Shown: positions 22,893 through 45,605 of the stretch, in pieces
How the letters are laid out: every line of letters starts with the position of its first letter
How positions within the stretch are numbered: position 1 is the first letter of the stretch
Assembly: GCA_017938435.1 (NCBI GenBank)
Contig: JAGBBO010000008.1
Location: 74,525-138,524, forward strand
From: Alphaproteobacteria bacterium
GTDB lineage: Bacteria; Pseudomonadota; Alphaproteobacteria; Rs-D84; CACZYB01
Length of the DNA: 64,000 bases
Direction of reading: 5' to 3'
The notes under the pieces: generated by a model
What the model was told of the DNA's origin: nothing
The model's input: only the letters and a program-made list of their open reading frames with translations
Database searches by the model: none
Program-made: the position numbers and the translations under genes

Positions 22893-25556
22893 ATGTCATC
22901 CATATCAATAATTATGCCGGTTTATAACAGAGAAAAATTTTTAGATAGAAGTGTTGGTTCTCTTATTTCTCAGACATTTAAAGATATAGAAATTATTTTG
23001 GTGGATGATGGTTCTGTTGATAATTCAGGAAAAATATTAGATAATTTTGCAAAACAAGATTCAAGGGTAAAAGTTTTTCATCAAAAAAACTCTGGTCCTG
23101 CAACTGCAAGAAATGTTGGTCTTGATAATGCAACAGGTGAATACATTATGTTTTGTGATAGTGATGACGCGTATGAACCAAATATGTGTGAGGTGATGTA
23201 TAAAACTATTTGTGAGAAACGGGCTGATTTAATTTTGTGTAGTGCAAAAAATGAGTATGGAACAGAACTTTATAAATTTAAAAAAAATTTATCTATAGTT
23301 GATGTTTTTTCAGATGTTGTATTGTGGAATAAAATTTTTAAAAAGTCGTTAATTGATAAGTATAATATAAGATTTCCTGATGGATATTTGAGTGATGATG
23401 ACTATTTTACTTTTGTGTATGCCTGTGTTTCAAAAAAGTATTATTTCACAAATAAAGTTTCATATTTTTATGTAACAGAAAATCCGGATGGTATTTGTTC
23501 TATGAGTTTAAAAAAGCCATCGAATCTTGCTGTGGAAAGTCATTTTTATGTAATAGAAGCTATTATTGATTTTTGTAAGAAAAATAATTTTTATAAAAAA
23601 TACAGAAAATATATTTATGACAAAATAAAAGAAACAGTATTTTATTTATCCTTAATAAATTACGATTATGAAAAATGTTTAAATTTATTGTTAAAATTTT
23701 TGGAAAAAACTGATTTTTCAACTAAGGAAAAAGATAAGGTTGTAAAAATCTATTCAACCTATAGACCTAGGTTGCATTATGAATATCCTGTTAAGCTGGA
23801 TAATAGTGCAAAAAATATAGTATTTTGTGTCGATTATTGTTATTTGAATTATTTATTTACCACAATAAGATCGTTGTGCAAAAATGCAAATAAACAATAT
23901 AAGTATGATGTATATATAGTTTATACAAACGGTCTTTCGTATCCATATTTTGAAAAGTTTTGGCATGAATTTGAAAAATATAAAAATATTACTTTGCATT
24001 TTTGTAATATTTCGGATTTGTATAATAAATATTGTGATGAAAAATCTTTTTATCAAGTTGGAAGAATTCCAGCCGTTGGATCGTATAGGTTGTTTTTATC
24101 AAAAATTTTTGATGGTGAAAAAATCCTTTATTTAGATAGTGGTGATATAATTGTAAATAAAGATGTTGCTGAATTTTTTAATCTTGAACTTAAAAATAAT
24201 ATTATTGCTGCGGTAAAGGATTTTGTTTTTCCAAGGATTGATTTTAAAAATACAGTTTTGGATAAAGATATGCTTTCGCCTTTTTTACAAAAGGTTGGAT
24301 ATAATGATTATGGAAATTATATAAATTCTGGGGTCCTTTTAATTAACCTTAAAGAATATAATAAATGTTTTGATGGATTTTTAAAATGTATGTATGAAAA
24401 ATCTTCGAATATGGATCAAGATATTTTAAATTATGTTATTCCAAAATCACGAATTTTGTTTTTATCGACTGCATATAATTTTCAGATAGGTTCTATTGAT
24501 TTGGTAGAAAAATTTGATAAAGAATATGCTGAATTTTATAAAAAATCTAATCTGAAAAATTCTTTTATAATTCATTATACAAGGGATAAAAAGCCATGGA
24601 AGTTTTATTTGAAATGGAATAATATTTATTTTTGGAAATATGCTTGGGTGTATTTTTTTAGATATATTTGGGTTTATAAAGATCTTAAACTTTCTGGTGA
24701 TGCAATATTATCTTTTGTTTATAATACAGGTAGTGAAAATGCAAATGTGGAAGTTGTAAAAGAACCAAGATTTTCATCAATTCGGGAAACTATGTTTGGT
24801 GAGGTTAAACACAATAATGGAATATGTGTGTGGGAGCCGTCTTTGTTTGTTAAAATGAAGGTTAGGGCAAAAGGAAATGGAAAAATTCATATAGTATTGT
24901 CTGGGACTGATAAAAAATATATATATTACAATAAATTGATTGTTAATGAGAAAGTTTTGCTTAATAAAATTCTTCCTGTAAATCAATATAATACTACTGA
25001 ATTTTTGATGCCAGTAAAAGATGGGGAAGTTATTGATTTGTATATTCAAAAATCATCGTTAAGATTTATTGGTTTTTTGAAAAGAATTGTGTTATGTATT
25101 AAACGACTTTTTGCTTCTAAAAATAAAAATTTTTCATTGAATATATTTGCTTTGAATACTCAATCTTTTGAGAATAAAGTTGACGTGTTGGATGAAAATA
25201 GAACTAATGTTTTATGGTTGGATTATCCAAAGTGGCTTTCAAATGAATGGGAAAATGGGGCCTTTATTGCAACAAAATCAAGATATTGTTCTTTTGATGT
25301 AAGGTTTATAAAGGATGGAATGTTTAAGTTAATACTTTCTACTTCGAAAGAGGATAAAATTGCGTATGTATCAAAGGTAGTTATGAATGATAATGTTATT
25401 TTAAATGGAATTTTTCCAGTGTCTTATTTCAAAAGAGTAAATCTTATGTTCCCTGTGAATAATGGGGATATAAAACGAATTAAGGTTTATGGTAAAAAGC
25501 ATAGTATTATTGGCTTTATTAAAAACTTTTTCATTAAAGAAAATTATAAAGAATAA
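22893..25556 (+). CDS. multidomain glycosyltransferase: GT2 (N-terminus) + GT8 (LgtC/RfaJ-like) + two C-terminal ~130-aa repeats
   Basis: 887 aa. GT2 motifs (IIMPVYNREKFL, VDDGSVDNS, CDSDD). GT8 motifs (YLDSGDIIV, NSGVLLINL, DQDILNYV, HYTRDKKPW). The C-terminal repeats both end in ...IGFIK. Confidence 0.75.
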   Translation: MSSISIIMPVYNREKFLDRSVGSLISQTFKDIEIILVDDGSVDNSGKILDNFAKQDSRVKVFHQKNSGPATARNVGLDNATGEYIMFCDSDDAYEPNMCEVMYKTICEKRADLILCSAKNEYGTELYKFKKNLSIVDVFSDVVLWNKIFKKSLIDKYNIRFPDGYLSDDDYFTFVYACVSKKYYFTNKVSYFYVTENPDGICSMSLKKPSNLAVESHFYVIEAIIDFCKKNNFYKKYRKYIYDKIKETVFYLSLINYDYEKCLNLLLKFLEKTDFSTKEKDKVVKIYSTYRPRLHYEYPVKLDNSAKNIVFCVDYCYLNYLFTTIRSLCKNANKQYKYDVYIVYTNGLSYPYFEKFWHEFEKYKNITLHFCNISDLYNKYCDEKSFYQVGRIPAVGSYRLFLSKIFDGEKILYLDSGDIIVNKDVAEFFNLELKNNIIAAVKDFVFPRIDFKNTVLDKDMLSPFLQKVGYNDYGNYINSGVLLINLKEYNKCFDGFLKCMYEKSSNMDQDILNYVIPKSRILFLSTAYNFQIGSIDLVEKFDKEYAEFYKKSNLKNSFIIHYTRDKKPWKFYLKWNNIYFWKYAWVYFFRYIWVYKDLKLSGDAILSFVYNTGSENANVEVVKEPRFSSIRETMFGEVKHNNGICVWEPSLFVKMKVRAKGNGKIHIVLSGTDKKYIYYNKLIVNEKVLLNKILPVNQYNTTEFLMPVKDGEVIDLYIQKSSLRFIGFLKRIVLCIKRLFASKNKNFSLNIFALNTQSFENKVDVLDENRTNVLWLDYPKWLSNEWENGAFIATKSRYCSFDVRFIKDGMFKLILSTSKEDKIAYVSKVVMNDNVILNGIFPVSYFKRVNLMFPVNNGDIKRIKVYGKKHSIIGFIKNFFIKENYKE

Positions 25557-25626: not shown

Positions 25627-27018
25627 ATGTCTTTTATTTTAAGTGTAATTTTTTGCTTGTTTGTTTTTGAAACACCTGTATTTGCTGAGGATGTAAAAAG
25701 TAGTGAAAATGTAAATGAAATATCGCTCAAAAGTGATAAAAAATTACAAAAAGATAGTGAAACAATTTCCCTTAATCCAATACAAATTATCAATCTTGCA
25801 AAAAAGTTTATTGAAGAAAAAAATTATGCTGGGGCAAGAATTCTTCTTACAAAATCACCATTTAATGTTAAGGAACTTGAAATAGAAAGGTTGCATTTGA
25901 TTGCAACTCTTGATGTCGTGGAAGGTAAAATTGATGATGCTATTGAAATTTATAGGTTTATTTTGGATTATCAACCAAATATTCCAAGTATTCGTTTAAA
26001 ATTGGCGGAACTTTATTTATTGCAAGGTTCTTATTATAAGGCTGATTATCATTTTAGACTTGCAGCAACAGATAAAACTTTGCCAACGGAAGTTCAAAAG
26101 AATATTGCAATGGCTCTTTATTTTGTGCGTCAAAATAAAAACTGGAATTTTTGGTTCAATTTTGGTGCTGCACCTGATAACAACATAAATAATGCAACTA
26201 ATAATAGTTATTGTTTACCTTCTACTGGCTGGTGTTCTTCTAATGATAAAGAAAAAGCTGTTGGTTTGAATGTTTCATTTGGGGGAAATTATGAATTTAA
26301 ACTTTCGGACAGGTGGCGTTTAAGAAACGAGGGAGTTGTTTATACTTCGAAATATAATAAAAGCGAATATGATGATTTATATTTAAGTTATGTTTTTGGT
26401 GGTAAATATGTTTGGCAAAGGGGAGATGTTTTCTTTGGCCCTAGTGTATCCCGTCGTTGGCTTGATCATCAGCCATACAACAGGACTTTTGGAGGAAGAG
26501 TTGATTTAGATTATGATTTTACCAAGCATCTTTCTGGTGGGATAAGTGGTTATTTTACACCTACTTATTATGATGATTATTCTGATATATTGGATGGTGA
26601 TGTTTATGGTTCAAGGGCAAGACTTTTTTATACTTTTGATTCTTCAAAATACCTTGCATTTAAAATTGGATACGAGCGTGAAAATACAAAAGATAAAAGA
26701 TATGCAAATGTGAAAAAATCTTATGCTATTGGTTTTGGAGCTGAACTTGGTTGGGGATTTTCTATGTATATAGAACCATCAATTCAATATACTGATTATA
26801 AGGATGAAAAAGCTGTAATGAGGGATTTATACGTTTATGATTATATTGTAGAGTCGGATGTGACACGCAAGTATATGCTTTCACTTTCCAATCGTAATAT
26901 AAAACTTTGGGGATTTGTGCCAACAATTACTTATGTTTATACTGATAAAACTTCAAATGTATGGCAAAAGGAATATTCAAAATCGACTGTGGAATTTACT
27001 GTTAATCAAAGATTTTAA
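25627..27018 (+). CDS. outer-membrane TPR + beta-barrel protein, candidate Slam (surface lipoprotein assembly modulator, DUF560-like)
   Basis: Start refined to the ATG at 25627 (RBS aaggaaaagg; signal peptide MSFILSVIFCLFVFETPVFA). About 140 aa of TPR-like helices, then an aromatic-rich beta-strand region ending in a terminal Phe. A TbpB-like lipoprotein lies 0.9 kb away. Confidence 0.55.
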   Translation: MSFILSVIFCLFVFETPVFAEDVKSSENVNEISLKSDKKLQKDSETISLNPIQIINLAKKFIEEKNYAGARILLTKSPFNVKELEIERLHLIATLDVVEGKIDDAIEIYRFILDYQPNIPSIRLKLAELYLLQGSYYKADYHFRLAATDKTLPTEVQKNIAMALYFVRQNKNWNFWFNFGAAPDNNINNATNNSYCLPSTGWCSSNDKEKAVGLNVSFGGNYEFKLSDRWRLRNEGVVYTSKYNKSEYDDLYLSYVFGGKYVWQRGDVFFGPSVSRRWLDHQPYNRTFGGRVDLDYDFTKHLSGGISGYFTPTYYDDYSDILDGDVYGSRARLFYTFDSSKYLAFKIGYERENTKDKRYANVKKSYAIGFGAELGWGFSMYIEPSIQYTDYKDEKAVMRDLYVYDYIVESDVTRKYMLSLSNRNIKLWGFVPTITYVYTDKTSNVWQKEYSKSTVEFTVNQRF

Positions 27019-27093
27019 TAAAATTAAGTATTGAAGAAATAAAAAAAGGTTTTGTCTTAGGCAAAACTTTTTTCTTTTTTATATATTATGAAG

Positions 27094-27183
27094 TGGCGGA
27101 TGGGGAGGGATTCGAACCCCCGGTGAAGTTGCCCCCACAACGGTTTTCAAGACCGCCGCATTCGACCGCTCTGCCACCCATCC
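27094..27183 (-). tRNA. tRNA-Ser (anticodon UGA)
   Basis: The reverse complement folds as a type II tRNA. Acceptor GGATGGG/CCCATCC, anticodon stem gcggt/accgt with loop CUUGAAA, a long variable arm, T-loop GGTTCGAAT, and an encoded CCA. Confidence 0.85.
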
Positions 27184-27236
27184 GTAAAAGATGTAGAGAT
27201 TATACAACAGAAAACTTTCTTTGTAAAGAGAAAAAT

Positions 27237-27809
27237 TTATCTTGTGATAGAATAAATTTCTGCTTGTGTTCTTGTGACAACTTCTTTTTTTTGAGATTGT
27301 TGATTTTTTACTTCGGCATAGAAATTTTCGACATACTCATAATACTTTTCAAATGTTTCAATAAATTCATCTTCTTTAATATCTTGGAACAATGATGGTG
27401 CAATATTTTTTATAAGTTTTCGTGTGCCAATGCGTGAAGAATCGTATGAAATGACTGAACGAATATTAGATATTTGTTTTTGTGAAAGGGTGGTTACTTG
27501 TTTTTGAAAATTTATATAAAGTTTAATAGAATCTTCAAGAGGAGTGATAATGTTATCGATTGTAAGATCTTTATTTGTTTTTAATTGGTTCAAATAAATA
27601 TTAATTTCTTGGATTATATTTAAGGTAATATCCAAATATATGTAACTTACTTCATTAACAAGAGTAGCATTATTAGAATTTTTCACATCGCATAAAACTT
27701 GTTTAAAATTAGTTATATCTGCAATCATTCTTTGTTTTTTAGTTTTCATTTTATACTCCAAAATTTTTATTTTTTTTGATACATTAAACAAATTAAATAA
27801 ATTTGTCAA
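27237..27809 (-). CDS. hypothetical protein (no signal peptide)
   Basis: 190 aa. Sits between the SLP gene and tRNA-Ser on the same strand. No recognisable domain. Confidence 0.45.
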   Translation of the reverse strand: MTNLFNLFNVSKKIKILEYKMKTKKQRMIADITNFKQVLCDVKNSNNATLVNEVSYIYLDITLNIIQEINIYLNQLKTNKDLTIDNIITPLEDSIKLYINFQKQVTTLSQKQISNIRSVISYDSSRIGTRKLIKNIAPSLFQDIKEDEFIETFEKYYEYVENFYAEVKNQQSQKKEVVTRTQAEIYSITR

Positions 27810-27884
27810 TAGTTTTGTTAAAAAAAAATAAAAAGGGCTGTTGGAATAACCAAAAGCCCCTTAAAGATATATGCTATAATTAGC

Positions 27885-29774
27885 TTATTTTTTCTTTGCA
27901 CCGAAGGAAATACCAAATTTAATAGATCCACTTTCACCATTTTCATCTATCCAATCATGTGTTTCACCTTGGAATTGTCCAATAACTTCGGTTGGATTAT
28001 TTGCGCCATAGTAGGCTGTTGTTAAATTCTTGTTTTGTAGAGCTGTATCTAAGTCAGTGATTTTTCCTTCATCTTCTGTCATAAAGTGCTCTTTTACATT
28101 ATCAGCAATATCTTTGTTATCAGCAGTAAATGTTGCAGATTTTATGGAGCCATTTTCTGTATCAACATTGATATCATACCAATTATCAAATTTGAATTGG
28201 ATATTTTCTGCTTTATTTTCTGCATCCTTAACAGTTAAGTCAACAGTTCCAGCCAAATCCATAGAAGAGTCGTTGCCATTATGAATATTTTCTATTACTT
28301 GACCAACGGCAGTTCCTGTAAATTTTGTTCCGTTTTCTACTTTTGTAATATCGGATTTGTAATAATCATTTCCGCCATTGATTAAGTAGTAATAATATTC
28401 GTTTTCATGAGATACAGGAATATCAAGTGTGGCTTTTACATATCCAAATTGTGTATATGATAAATTAGCACTTGCACCACCAAGGACAAGGTCATAATTT
28501 ACAACAAAGTTGTTATTTTCCTTTTCAACTTTTAATTTATAACCATTGCCAAGGTCAACGAAACCTTTATTAAAATCAGTTTCAGAAATACCTTCTAAAA
28601 GTAATTTTTTAACCTTGTCAAAGTCAGCTGAACTTTCTTCATCTTTACCAATTAACGCACTTAAAAATTCGAAATCAGCACCTTCCCAATCATCAGGTCT
28701 TGACTGATTGATATAGTTAGCAAGCTCTTCAAATTTTGTTATATTGCTAACATCTGTTTTAACATTTGCATCAGTGAATATTTGATTTGATGTAGTTCTA
28801 TCCAATACACTTGTCTTTGCTGTTCCATCTTCATTTGTTATTATATTACCGTCTTTATCATACAAAAATTCGGTTCCTGTAACACCAAGAAGAGAGTTAT
28901 CTTTATAAATGCTTAAAACATTCATCTTTGTTGTTTCAGATTTACGACCAGATACAATTTTTGTTTTTTCATCTTGTTTTAAATCTTTCAATTCAAATGT
29001 TTTTGAAATATCAGTTATACGATTATTGTTATCATATTCATATAATTTTAATTCTACAGCAACAGCATTTCCATTTTCATCAGTAACAAATTTTAATTCT
29101 GGATCTTTGTCAGCGTCGGAAGCAATAACAGCGGTTAATCCCCATTTGAAATCAGTGTCAAGTTTGAATGATTTTGCTTGGAATGTTGTTTCTTTTGCCT
29201 CAACACTTTCTTTTATTTTATCTAATTTTGAGATAAAAGTATCAAGAACTTTGTCTGCTTCTTTTGTAATATTTTCAGCTTCTTCTTTGCTAACAAAAAT
29301 AGAAACACCTTCTTTGATTACATTTGTAAGGATATCATCTTGCTTTTTTTCGGTAAATTTTTCAGCAATTTTTTCTAGTTTATCTTGTGCAGATTTAAGC
29401 CATTTTGCATAGATTTGAATAAGGTTATATTTCATTTCTGTTTCTGTTAATTCAGATGACTTTTTCCAGTTTGTAGTTGTTGCACGACGATGAGATTTTG
29501 CACTGCGATTTGTATTTTCATCAGTTGATGAGAAAATTTCATTATCTATTTCAACTATGGTATCATAGTTTGAAGTATCTATTTCATCACCGATATTTTG
29601 TTCTGCTTTTGCAATGATATCTTTTGAATTATCTTTTTCCACAGCAAGTTTTTGTTTTGATTGTTCGCGAATATTAACGGTTGTAGAACTAGGCAATGTA
29701 GAAACAGGGGAATTTCCACCACCACAAGCAGTAAGTGTTAAAAGCAATACAGTTAAACTAACTTTATTTTTCAT
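27885..29774 (-). CDS. surface lipoprotein with TbpB/fHbp-like C-terminal handle-barrel domain (candidate Slam-dependent SLP)
   Basis: 629 aa. Lipobox LTACGGGNS. Long charged coiled-coil-like middle region. The C-terminus carries the TbpB_B_D-like signatures (SYTQFGYV...YYYYLINGG...GTKFTGTAVGQV... and terminal GSIKFGISFGAKKK). Confidence 0.6.
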   Translation of the reverse strand: MKNKVSLTVLLLTLTACGGGNSPVSTLPSSTTVNIREQSKQKLAVEKDNSKDIIAKAEQNIGDEIDTSNYDTIVEIDNEIFSSTDENTNRSAKSHRRATTTNWKKSSELTETEMKYNLIQIYAKWLKSAQDKLEKIAEKFTEKKQDDILTNVIKEGVSIFVSKEEAENITKEADKVLDTFISKLDKIKESVEAKETTFQAKSFKLDTDFKWGLTAVIASDADKDPELKFVTDENGNAVAVELKLYEYDNNNRITDISKTFELKDLKQDEKTKIVSGRKSETTKMNVLSIYKDNSLLGVTGTEFLYDKDGNIITNEDGTAKTSVLDRTTSNQIFTDANVKTDVSNITKFEELANYINQSRPDDWEGADFEFLSALIGKDEESSADFDKVKKLLLEGISETDFNKGFVDLGNGYKLKVEKENNNFVVNYDLVLGGASANLSYTQFGYVKATLDIPVSHENEYYYYLINGGNDYYKSDITKVENGTKFTGTAVGQVIENIHNGNDSSMDLAGTVDLTVKDAENKAENIQFKFDNWYDINVDTENGSIKSATFTADNKDIADNVKEHFMTEDEGKITDLDTALQNKNLTTAYYGANNPTEVIGQFQGETHDWIDENGESGSIKFGISFGAKKK

Positions 29775-29954
29775 AATAAATTCCTTTTTTTTGTTTATAT
29801 TTTACCCTTTATATTGAAGAAAAAAGGGTGGTTTAATTTTCAATATCTTTTAAAAAATAAAATTGGCTATTTTTAGGAATTTTCTTGCAAAAATATTCCT
29901 TTTAATTATACTTAATTTTAAACCACCATTTAATTTATATTCTTATTTGAGAAA

Positions 29955-30147
29955 AATTATTGACAAATCAAAGACTTTGATGTATATTCTTTGCTACCGA
30001 GAAAGTAGAACTGAGTAAGGTGTCTCCCACCTGATAAGGCTCTCAGCCACCTTGAAAAAGGAATGGACTATCGGACAAACCCAAGGTAATCGCTCAATTA
30101 TCTTGTAAAATAAACCGCCCATTTGGGCATAACTAAGGAGACTAACT
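29955..30147 (+). promoter_or_regulatory. rpsD promoter (TTGACA...TATATT with embedded palindrome TCAAAGACTTTGA) and ~150-nt GC-richer structured leader
   Basis: Consensus -35 element, a palindrome in the spacer, a hairpin cgcccatttgggc, and an RBS aaggag 8 nt before the TTG start. Confidence 0.4.
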
Positions 30148-43369: not shown

Positions 43370-44023
43370 TTGAAAATTTTTAAAAAAATTAAAACTTATA
43401 AACGAGCTGTGCGTGTTTTATATAAAAATATGACTACGCACAGCCGTGTTGTTTTTCTTTTGAAAATTGCTTTGCCAAGTTTTATTGCTTTGTTTTTAGG
43501 GATGATTATTATTGTTCCAAATATTGATGATAAAATTAAAAATATAAAAATATCTATGCCAAGTTTGGAAAGCACAGATAAAATTTCATTCAATATGGAT
43601 AGGGCTGATTTTTATGGTCAAGGTGATGATAATACTTTATTTTCTGTGAATATCGAAAATTTTAAGGAAAATAAAGAAAATCAAGAAATGTATTTTTCAA
43701 AGATAAAGAGTAAAATATTTTTGGAAGATGGTAGTTGGATTGACCTTTCAACTGATGATGGAAATTATAAAAAAACAAAAAATATGTTTTCTATGCGTGG
43801 AAATATTTATTTGTTTGATAGTGATAATAATCAAGTTTATACAGATGAAGCTGATGTAAATCTTAAAGATATGACTGTATCTGGGGATAAAAAAATTCGT
43901 GCGATTACTCCGTTTGGAGAAATAGAAAGTGATGGCTTTTATTTCAAAAAGAACGAAGTATATCACTTTCTTGGTAAAGTGAAGGGTAATATAGATACTT
44001 CGAAAATTCAAAAATCTAAATAG
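43370..44023 (+). CDS. lptC: LPS export system protein LptC-like
   Basis: 217 aa with an N-terminal TM anchor followed by a beta-rich periplasmic domain. Sits immediately after kdsD, as in the kdsD-lptC arrangement. Confidence 0.45.
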   Translation: MKIFKKIKTYKRAVRVLYKNMTTHSRVVFLLKIALPSFIALFLGMIIIVPNIDDKIKNIKISMPSLESTDKISFNMDRADFYGQGDDNTLFSVNIENFKENKENQEMYFSKIKSKIFLEDGSWIDLSTDDGNYKKTKNMFSMRGNIYLFDSDNNQVYTDEADVNLKDMTVSGDKKIRAITPFGEIESDGFYFKKNEVYHFLGKVKGNIDTSKIQKSK

Positions 44024-45605
44024 ATTTCTTTACAATTATTGAAAGTTGACGACCTTCATCTGTAGGAGTGTTGTTTGCATAGTCTTTTGTAATAACGCTT
44101 CTTCGATAACTAAAGAATAAATCACTTTCTTTATATGTATCAAATGGCAAAATTTCAATATTTTTTATACCTTCAGCATTTAACTTCATTTTACAGAAAC
44201 CAGAACAATCGAAAAGATACTTTTCATCTTTTGGAATAAATAAACTTTCAAAATTTTCGTTTTCTTTTGTAATTTTTTCCATAAAATCTTTATCAACTTC
44301 GTATGAATTTTGTTTTAGACATGGACCTAAAACAACCTTTATATCACGAGGATTTGAACCAAAAGATTTCATTTTTTCAATAGCTGTATGCACAATATTT
44401 TTATGTATTCCTTGCCATCCACAATGAATTGCACCTATAAGGCCTGTTTTTTCATCGGAAATAAGTAGGGGAACGCAATCTGCTGTAAGTATGCCAATAG
44501 CCAAGTTAGGTTGATTTGTGATTATACCATCAACTTTCATATTTAGATATTTTTCAATATCTTTAACAGGTGTATCAATATAAATAACTTCGTTGGTGTG
44601 TTGTTGATTAACTGTGATTAAAGATGTATCAGAATTCAATCCCAAATCATTTAATAATCTATGGCGATTTTCAGCAACATTTTCCTTTGAATCTGATGTT
44701 TCAAATTTGCAATTTGCGGATGCAAAAACGCCAGATGATACACCATTTTGTCTTGTAAAAAATCTAGTTTTAATAGATTGATTTTCAAGAAATGGTGAAG
44801 AAACATATTTTTGAATAACTTGTTCCTTTTTTGATAAGTAGATTATTGCTGTTATTGATGCAAGAATCATTGGAATAGTTAAAAGTTGTCCCATTGTTAT
44901 GCCAAATTTTAAAAATCCAATTTGAGCATCTGGTTCACGAAAGTTTTCGATAATAATTCTTGCAATACCATACAAACCAACAAATGCAAATGCAGTTGTG
45001 CCGTAACGATTTTTTACGGCTTTGAATTTATGTATTACAAAAAGAATTAAAAATAAAATTAAACCTTCGCCAAATGCTTCGTAAAGTTGACTTGGATGAC
45101 GAGGAAGTCCGTCGGTGTTAGGAAAAATAATTCCTAAAGATGATAAGGTTGGTCTTCCGTAAAGTTCACCATTTATGAAGTTTGCTATACGACCAAGAAA
45201 TAGTCCAATAGGGGCAGCCATTGCAAATAAATCAGCAATTTGAAAAAATGACTTTTTATGATATCTACACCATAAAAATATTGTTGTTATTACACCAACA
45301 AGTCCGCCGTGAAATGACATTCCTCCTTCCCATATTTTGAATATATCAAGAGGGCGAGAAATATAATAACTGAAATTATAAAATAATGTATAACCAACAC
45401 GACCGCCGATAACAACACCCAAAACACAATTTGTAAATAAATCATCAAGTTCTGAATATGAAATAGCAGTATTTGTGCTATGTCTTAATATGTGTTTAAT
45501 ATAATAAAATGCAAATATAAATCCAAATATGTAAGAGAGTGCATACCAACGAATATCAAATCCTAAAATAGATATTGCAACAGGGGATATATTTGGAAAT
45601 TGCAT
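44016..45605 (-). CDS. lgt: prolipoprotein diacylglyceryl transferase (Lgt) fused in frame to a PgeF/YfiH (DUF152, Cu-oxidase_4) domain
   Basis: Residues 1-~265 form the Lgt membrane domain (GGRVGYTLFYN, WEGGMSFHGGLVG). Residues ~280-529 carry PgeF motifs (TADCVPLL...HCGWQG). The reading frame is continuous. Confidence 0.7.
   Translation of the reverse strand: MQFPNISPVAISILGFDIRWYALSYIFGFIFAFYYIKHILRHSTNTAISYSELDDLFTNCVLGVVIGGRVGYTLFYNFSYYISRPLDIFKIWEGGMSFHGGLVGVITTIFLWCRYHKKSFFQIADLFAMAAPIGLFLGRIANFINGELYGRPTLSSLGIIFPNTDGLPRHPSQLYEAFGEGLILFLILFVIHKFKAVKNRYGTTAFAFVGLYGIARIIIENFREPDAQIGFLKFGITMGQLLTIPMILASITAIIYLSKKEQVIQKYVSSPFLENQSIKTRFFTRQNGVSSGVFASANCKFETSDSKENVAENRHRLLNDLGLNSDTSLITVNQQHTNEVIYIDTPVKDIEKYLNMKVDGIITNQPNLAIGILTADCVPLLISDEKTGLIGAIHCGWQGIHKNIVHTAIEKMKSFGSNPRDIKVVLGPCLKQNSYEVDKDFMEKITKENENFESLFIPKDEKYLFDCSGFCKMKLNAEGIKNIEILPFDTYKESDLFFSYRRSVITKDYANNTPTDEGRQLSIIVKKSI

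Follow-up and report, generated by a model that had tools for sequence, protein, structure and literature searches.

A Slam outer-membrane protein and its probable cargo lipoprotein in a gut alphaproteobacterium

The 64,000-nucleotide stretch of alphaproteobacterial DNA analysed here (the window) contains two convergent genes that very probably encode an outer-membrane protein of the type 11 secretion system (T11SS), termed Slam, and one of its cargo lipoproteins, here called the surface lipoprotein (SLP). The identity of the Slam protein, the lipobox of the SLP, the predicted fold of its cargo domain and the conserved linkage of this domain with Slam genes were observed in silico, while translocation of the SLP and its exposure on the cell surface are proposed by analogy with characterised systems. 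Work on Slam proteins and T11SS has been carried out mainly in Neisseria, Moraxella, Pasteurellaceae, Acinetobacter and Xenorhabdus, and the known cargo includes vaccine antigens and colonisation factors. A sequence-only reading of the window had described two convergent open reading frames (ORFs) next to a tRNA-Ser gene, and this layout was borne out by the sequence, ARAGORN and Rfam (Table 1).

The Slam protein, the lipoprotein and their genetic linkage

The first gene product, a 463-amino acid (aa) protein, matched Pfam PF04575 (SlipAM, formerly DUF560) with E=2.3e-36 and a score of 126.2 bits against a cutoff of 22. The match extended over the full profile, with aa 173-463 covering positions 1-288 of 288, in agreement with the DUF560 assignment made from sequence. 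The protein begins with a typical signal peptide (MSFILSVIFCLFVFETPVFA, followed by ED), and a search for homologues recovered 353 at E<=1e-10. An AlphaFold2 model based on a 52-sequence alignment, with a mean predicted local distance difference test score (pLDDT) of 83.9, placed an N-terminal signal helix ahead of seven helices at aa 51-170 (pLDDT >90), predicted to form a TPR-like periplasmic domain, and exactly 14 strands at aa 173-461, predicted to form a β-barrel. A TPR domain joined to a 14-strand barrel is the architecture described for Slams (PMC5449769), and it had been expected of this protein. TPR profiles scored below threshold on the window protein itself (TPR_19, 24.0 versus 25; TPR_Slam, 22.3 versus 35.2), and its homologues carry a precomputed PF24575 assignment.

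When the Slam model was used as a Foldseek query, the top matches were the TPR-plus-barrel exporters BcsC and PelBC, and the 14-strand OmpG was the best-superposing target among the listed matches (TM 0.62). The PDB folds recovered were generic TPR-plus-barrel proteins and 14-strand barrels, with no solved Slam structure among them. Neisseria Slam1 and Slam2 and Pasteurella PmSlam are likewise DUF560/SlipAM proteins with an N-terminal TPR domain and a 14-strand barrel. Taken together, the assignment of the 463-aa protein as a Slam/T11SS outer-membrane protein is secure by sequence, and the modelled structure is consistent with it.

The second gene encodes a 629-aa lipoprotein. Its N-terminus (MKNKVSLTVLLLTLTAC, followed by GGGNS) was read directly from the sequence, without a dedicated predictor, as ...LLLTLTAC17GGGNS, with the lipobox LTAC and Cys17 running into the Gly linker as the sequence-only reading had described. 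The residues L14-T15-A16-C17-G18-G19 are invariant in 12 SLP relatives. In the structure model the protein ends in a single C-terminal lobe, composed of a handle followed by a predicted eight-strand β-barrel. A fold search with this model ranked Slam cargo ahead of all other barrels, with TbpB and LbpB as the best Foldseek matches. The lobe is presumed, by analogy with known cargo, to be the domain through which Slam recognises and translocates the protein.

Full-length relatives of the SLP are rare, with 14 found in 5.8 billion clustered proteins, all metagenomic. A profile of the C-terminal domain reached much further and recovered 398 clusters at 50% identity, of which 224 were at E<=1e-10. 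The domain stands at the C-terminus in every listed complete protein, and the proteins that carry it are about 215-800 aa long. A contig profile scan using the full-length SLP alignment, which held N-terminal patterns only, gave 0 confirmed matches; the Slam alignment was used instead to scan 185,579 species genomes, yielding 75 loci. All 75 come from metagenome-assembled genomes (MAGs) of gut origin (ruminants, deer, horse, chicken, human, mouse and termites), many of them Candidatus Enterousia, and more distant Slam relatives also occur in this candidate genus.

A cargo-domain hidden Markov model (HMM) was then run on all ORFs of the Slam loci. Of 66 species-level loci, 41 had a matching ORF no more than 3.5 kb away from a full-length Slam gene. 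Nearly all matches (53 of 54) fell in the Slam-proximal 41% of the sequence (binomial P=5.6e-20), and among these 53, 52 were on the Slam strand and 45 were directly upstream. A lipobox followed by a run of Gly or Ser was present in 48 of the 54 matching proteins, most of which end in ...FG(A/G/V)K. At two loci (L011, 5018-10899; L071, 3870-11350) the Slam gene comes directly after a tandem row of three to four SLP paralogues whose signal peptides are identical (MKNNLKISLIALSTLLTACGGG...). Because of this tandem arrangement and the upstream matches on the same strand, an operon of one or more SLP genes followed by Slam is the usual arrangement in the lineage, and the convergent order in the window is a local rearrangement. 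The closest species is L012, with a Slam that is 74% identical; there the Slam gene has the opposite orientation relative to UDG, BOF, tRNA-Ser and a homologue of the 170-aa ORF that lies between the SLP gene and tRNA-Ser in the window.

Two further Slam loci were observed. One, L005 (1087-4486), lies beside integrase and resolvase genes and ~3.5 kb from the SLP paralogue P0010, and combines a second Slam (444 aa, SlipAM) with a downstream gene for a 681-aa lipoprotein whose long linker is rich in Gly, Asn, Ser and Pro; the 681-aa protein was not matched by the C-terminal domain HMM, and the two genes look like a mobile Slam-cargo pair. The other, L069 (OZ007020.1), is a circular MAG of 958,618 bp from a related alphaproteobacterium, in which a Slam gene has an adjacent family member. 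The Slam system has therefore been kept in a genome below 1 Mb.

Sequence variation and the shared 5′ cassette of the lipoprotein genes

DNA alignment revealed a ~290-bp 5′ cassette of almost the same sequence in at least three SLP paralogues of the source genome: the window gene, P0014, which is ~43 kb away in the opposite orientation, and P0010, which adjoins corA. Compared with L001 and L008, contigs L002 and L009, both from SAMN15830105, show a reciprocal exchange of outer flanks between the window gene and P0014, and the crossover points lie inside the cassette. The reciprocal swap and the position of the crossovers therefore indicate a ~43-kb inversion that would have arisen by homologous recombination, with misassembly at the 290-bp repeat as the alternative explanation. 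Several contigs break just upstream of SLP genes that carry the cassette.

Alleles of the window gene differ mainly in one place. Compared with the window SLP, the allele P0002 from other samples shows identities of ~97% for most of aa 1-285 and of ~83-100% (mostly 90-100%) for aa 420-629, but of only 13-67% for aa 286-405. This pattern is as would be expected of a surface-exposed segment under diversifying selection or recombination, and its mosaic character suggests recombinational replacement of an exposed region.

Within the cassette lies an element bounded by inverted repeats and followed by a T-run, with its 3′ arm 60 nt before the SLP start codon. A like layout was found at L011 (6130-6280 and 7850-8000) and at L071, where the arms differ in sequence yet remain complementary, with one compensatory arm pair between two copies of the element. 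In the two species the elements share arms of 10-16 bp, a spacing of ~81-90 nt, the T-run and a position 45-60 nt before SLP start codons. Comparison of predicted RNA folds with shuffled sequences gave z=-3.9 for the L011 copy and z=-0.47 for the window copy. The orientation of the element was identical in all 10 contigs examined; a scan of the JGI metagenome collection for the flipped junction returned 0 matches, as did the control scan for the normal junction, which indicates that this organism is absent from the collection. The element may work as a complex terminator or as an insulator, act as a leader RNA, or serve as a switch.

These features raise the question of whether the SLP genes are a phase- or antigen-variable family, in which the cassette and the inverted-repeat element would serve as a device for recombination or switching and so alter which lipoprotein is displayed. 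The sharing of the cassette by at least three paralogues, the reciprocal inversion between two of them across samples, the differences between alleles in the hypervariable segment and the retention of the inverted-repeat architecture across species with compensating arm changes would all accord with such a device. However, every paralogue retains a complete cassette of its own, so that the inversion should leave expression unchanged, the element has one orientation in all of the contigs examined, the RNA fold of the window copy is no better than that of shuffled sequences, and short-read misassembly might account for the rearrangement. On this balance we consider a dedicated variation device unlikely. 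The same caution applies to a broader scheme, which we regard as doubtful: that Slam-displayed lipoproteins form an expanded and fast-diversifying multigene family in reduced-genome, partner-dependent gut Alphaproteobacteria, represented by at least four genes and two Slams in the source genome and by ~400 sequence clusters in all, with the cassette (promoter, signal peptide and lipobox) and the inverted-repeat element driving recombination or switching, and with the resulting surface variation controlling attachment to a host or partner.

In Mycoplasma (vlp, vsp, vsa) and Borrelia (vlp, vsp), multigene families of variable lipoproteins are known whose 5′ cassette for expression and signal peptide is conserved. 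Those families likewise combine near-identical upstream DNA, signal peptide and lipobox with divergent mature sequences and recombination between copies. In contrast to them, the genes described here gave no sign of a dedicated recombinase, of silent copies or of expression from a single site, and the resemblance is a lead only.

Proposed display pathway and possible ligands

A Slam-dependent display pathway for the SLP can be modelled on the Neisseria system (PMC5449769, PMC8406197; Hooda 2016/2017). Sec would export the 629-aa preprotein, Lgt, LspA and Lnt would lipidate it at Cys17, and Lol would deliver it to the outer membrane. There Slam, with its periplasmic TPR-like domain and 14-strand barrel, would recognise the SLP through the C-terminal handle and eight-strand barrel of the latter and move it to the cell surface, where its lipid would keep it anchored. 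The variable helical domains of the N-terminus and the middle would then project outward on the flexible Gly-rich linker, and may serve as the ligand-binding or adhesive part of the protein.

The general plan is shared with cargo of the Neisseria and Pasteurella systems. Neisseria fHbp and HpuA and Pasteurella PmSLP and fIbp likewise have a lipobox-Gly linker, one C-terminal handle-barrel lobe and a variable N-terminal part, and in those systems too the cargo gene may lie beside the Slam gene or away from it. The window SLP differs from these proteins in having no detectable sequence similarity to them and in its N-terminal effector region, which is mainly helical and much longer, and the host is here an uncultured gut alphaproteobacterium. 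The barrel-and-handle fold and a similar lipobox-Gly linker are also common to the SLP and TbpB/LbpB. TbpB ends in a similar ...FGAK(K/R) motif.

The sequence-only reading had proposed a host-exposed lipoprotein that might act in nutrient capture or complement evasion. Surface exposure is retained here as part of the proposed pathway. As to function, we tentatively favour binding of a host or partner-cell molecule, as an adhesin or in an immune or partner interaction of the kind known for fHbp, NilC and PmSLP, over a role as a TbpB-like iron co-receptor. This preference is given because no TonB-dependent receptor or haem gene was seen in the annotated ~60% of the window, because the SLP has a single lobe, and because related bacteria of the order Rs-D84 are without respiratory chains.

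A role in nutrient capture in the sense of TbpB or hemophilin, with the SLP binding haem or an iron/haem carrier and delivering to a TonB-dependent receptor or being released as a hemophore, fits these data poorly. TbpB and LbpB are bilobed transferrin and lactoferrin receptors with a partner TonB-dependent receptor gene, whereas the SLP model has one handle-barrel lobe and no TbpA-type receptor gene is adjacent. Annotation of ~60% of the window (1-40 kb, plus ten of the larger ORFs at 40-61 kb) revealed no TonB-dependent receptor, TonB or haem gene. Soluble T11SS hemophores such as hemophilin, HphA and HrpC are unlipidated and released, hemophilin and HphA being cleaved by signal peptidase I and bearing an N-terminal haem-binding clamp. 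In contrast, the lipobox of the SLP argues that it is anchored rather than free, ~400 extra residues precede its C-terminal domain, and the predicted helical effector region is unlike either the haem clamp or the N-lobe of TbpB. Iron and haem demand would also be low if, as in Rs-D84 relatives, respiratory chains are lacking (PMC12306168). The protein does share the fold of its C-terminal lobe with TbpB, and on the whole we judge such a role quite improbable.

Several results weigh against assigning the lipoprotein to the Slam pathway at all. Searches of the SLP against Pfam and NCBIfam at E<=1 gave no match to TbpB_B_D, Lipoprotein_5 or fHbp (Lipoprot_C), Pfam gave no match to TbpB_A or TbpB_C, and neither phmmer nor two family-profile searches against the PDB recovered an SLP. 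Among 103 family representatives searched against Pfam, 0 matched the TbpB_B_D, Lipoprotein_5 or fHbp families and one weakly matched HphA_C. Alignment of two family profiles with a verified fHbp sequence by hhalign gave a probability of <1%; the alignment was limited to one non-significant fragment, the expected YYG..P.E..G / IFGGKAQEVAG strand. The SLP model is of moderate confidence (pLDDT 68.5, from a 12-sequence alignment), the cargo-domain HMM detected no family member at 25 of the 66 Slam loci, and the paralogues P0010 and P0014 are located away from any Slam. Finally, the two genes in the window form no operon, because they are convergent with a tRNA gene and an ORF between them.

Because the profile searches fail, the link to Slam rests on the fold and the gene neighbourhood. 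The absence of TbpB_B_D or Lipoprot_C membership is a matter of sequence families and not of functional class. Of the TbpB/fHbp-type handle-barrel proposed in the sequence-only reading, the fold was upheld by the model and the fold search, while the "hallmark motifs" cited for it were not statistically detectable, and the TbpB_B_D/Lipoprotein_5 match that it foresaw failed to appear in Pfam, NCBIfam, PDB profiles or hhalign. That the SLP is instead an ordinary periplasm-facing outer-membrane lipoprotein, near a Slam by coincidence while the Slam serves other cargo, would suit the separate transcription of the convergent genes with tRNA-Ser and an ORF between them, the paralogues P0010 and P0014 without an adjacent Slam and the missing sequence-level match to known SLP domains, but is very unlikely given the presence of the C-terminal domain beside Slam orthologues in 41 of 66 species (52 of 53 on the Slam strand), the rank of Slam cargo before all other barrels in the fold search and the fact that orphan cargo genes, for example fHbp, are normal in Neisseria (PMC5449769).

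The assignment of the SLP as Slam cargo also agrees with the rule by which such proteins are recognised. More than 3,000 T11SS proteins are known, and the combination of a variable N-terminus and a C-terminal eight-strand barrel beside DUF560 is established (PMC12282271). The cargo rule of Grossman et al. 2025 (PMC12282271) fits the SLP, with its variable N-terminal effector, central β "pedestal", C-terminal eight-strand barrel and co-occurrence with DUF560, and helical or disordered regions ahead of the handle have been described in T11SS cargo (PMC12282271). That work detected cargo through BLAST similarity to domains already known from cargo; because the SLP family has no such similarity, it would be missed by a search of this kind. 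The same paper makes no mention of Alphaproteobacteria or of metagenome-derived gut lineages of this kind, and no paper linking Rs-D84 or Enterousia with T11SS was found in the literature searched.

The sequence-only reading had called a Slam-SLP pair in such a background unusual, which overstates the case: Slams are found in all clades of Proteobacteria, alpha included (PMC5449769), and GenBank already annotates the DUF560 domain. The novelty is a sequence-divergent cargo family in an unstudied lineage and not a new system, and understanding of the system is unchanged. The family is nonetheless large, and invisible to Pfam and to BLAST-based cargo searches despite a canonical fold and linkage. 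Its C-terminal domain profile provides a new profile for T11SS cargo predictors, and its members are concrete candidates for experiments. In relatives with genomes below 1 Mb, which probably depend on partner cells, a few displayed lipoproteins may be the main interface with a host or partner.

Source organism and surrounding genes

The DNA comes from a MAG labelled "Alphaproteobacteria bacterium", and the window has a mean GC content of 31%. Comparison of its LepA and RpsD with their counterparts in other gut MAGs of the Slam-locus set gave identities of 85-90%. Near-identical contigs occur in assemblies named XIEF21-1_SAMN158301xx, a name that points to the ruminant gut data set of Xie et al. 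2021. Members of the order Rs-D84, which includes Enterousia, mostly have genomes smaller than 1 Mb and probably live in dependence on a partner (PMC12306168), and "reduced, host-associated alphaproteobacterium" is a fair description of this phylogenetic neighbourhood. The sequence-only reading was right in recognising an AT-rich alphaproteobacterium; the Rickettsiales-like endosymbiont that it also suggested gives way to a ruminant-gut MAG with relatives of the Rs-D84 type. "Rickettsiales endosymbiont" was not adopted as a description, as this label is attached only to some distant relatives at NCBI and the window has ordinary envelope genes. These include LpxA/LpxI, PBP1 and MltA in the left flank, MlaD near the SLP gene, and Lgt and an AmiC-type amidase in the right flank.

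Table 1. Positions of the Slam and SLP genes, their parts and neighbouring features in the window
Feature	Position	Strand	Details
GT2-GT8 glycosyltransferase fusion	22893-25556	+	887 aa
Slam gene	25627..27018	+	463 aa; ATG 25627, stop 27018
Terminator-like hairpin	27043..27073	+	14-pair stem, A-run before, T-run after; between Slam stop and tRNA-Ser
tRNA-Ser(tga)	27094-27183	-	ARAGORN, Rfam
170-aa ORF	27237-27749	-	downstream of SLP gene, between SLP gene and tRNA-Ser
SLP gene	27885-29774	-	629 aa
SLP linker			to aa ~47; Gly-rich, disordered
SLP helical domain			aa ~50-200
SLP β region			aa 209-301
SLP hypervariable middle segment	28560..28919	-	aa ~286-405
SLP variable helical insert			aa ~326-403
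SLP C-terminal handle and eight-strand barrel (predicted)	27888..28562	-	aa ~405-629; ends ...ISFGAKKK
Shared 5′ cassette	29691..29978	-	~290 bp: ~200 nt of upstream DNA and first ~28 codons (signal peptide, lipobox, linker)
Inverted-repeat-bounded element	29827..29927	-	inside cassette; 10-bp arms GGTGGTTTAA and TTAAACCACC, 81 nt between
Lgt (prolipoprotein diacylglyceryl transferase)	44016..45605	-	Pfam LGT, E=1.2e-71

The mechanical ORF of the Slam gene begins at 25489; gene callers, the lengths of homologues, the public gene call and the typical signal peptide that results favour the start given in Table 1. In GenBank, under the J6J27_ locus tags of the same MAG, the Slam protein is MBP3615594.1 ("DUF560 domain-containing protein") and the lipoprotein is MBP3615596.1 ("hypothetical protein"). 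The two genes are 867 bp apart. The hairpin that follows the Slam stop codon was identified by a consensus scan, as a pattern match only, and probably marks the end of transcription for the convergent units. The tRNA-Ser(tga) gene also adjoins the Slam locus in two related species (L012 and L015); it is a neighbour and landmark and has no functional part in the locus.

The product of the 170-aa ORF has no Pfam or NCBIfam match and no signal peptide and looks cytoplasmic. In L012 a 38% identical homologue (1135-1593) is flanked by tRNA-Ser(tga) and the Slam gene, and because of this homologue the association of the ORF with the locus appears conserved although the gene order is rearranged. Its membership of the Slam system is uncertain.

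Directly upstream of the Slam gene is the gene for a fusion of GT2 and GT8 glycosyltransferases, with ~25% GC. In L012, the most closely related species, no such fusion stands at the matching position between UDG and Slam, and the gene may have been inserted recently; any connection with surface glycosylation is speculative.

Further along the window lies the gene for Lgt, the first enzyme of lipoprotein maturation, and the lipidation pathway that the SLP would need is therefore encoded. The Lgt domain is part of a single 529-aa ORF, in which it is fused with a Cu-oxidase_4 (YfiH/PgeF-like) domain.

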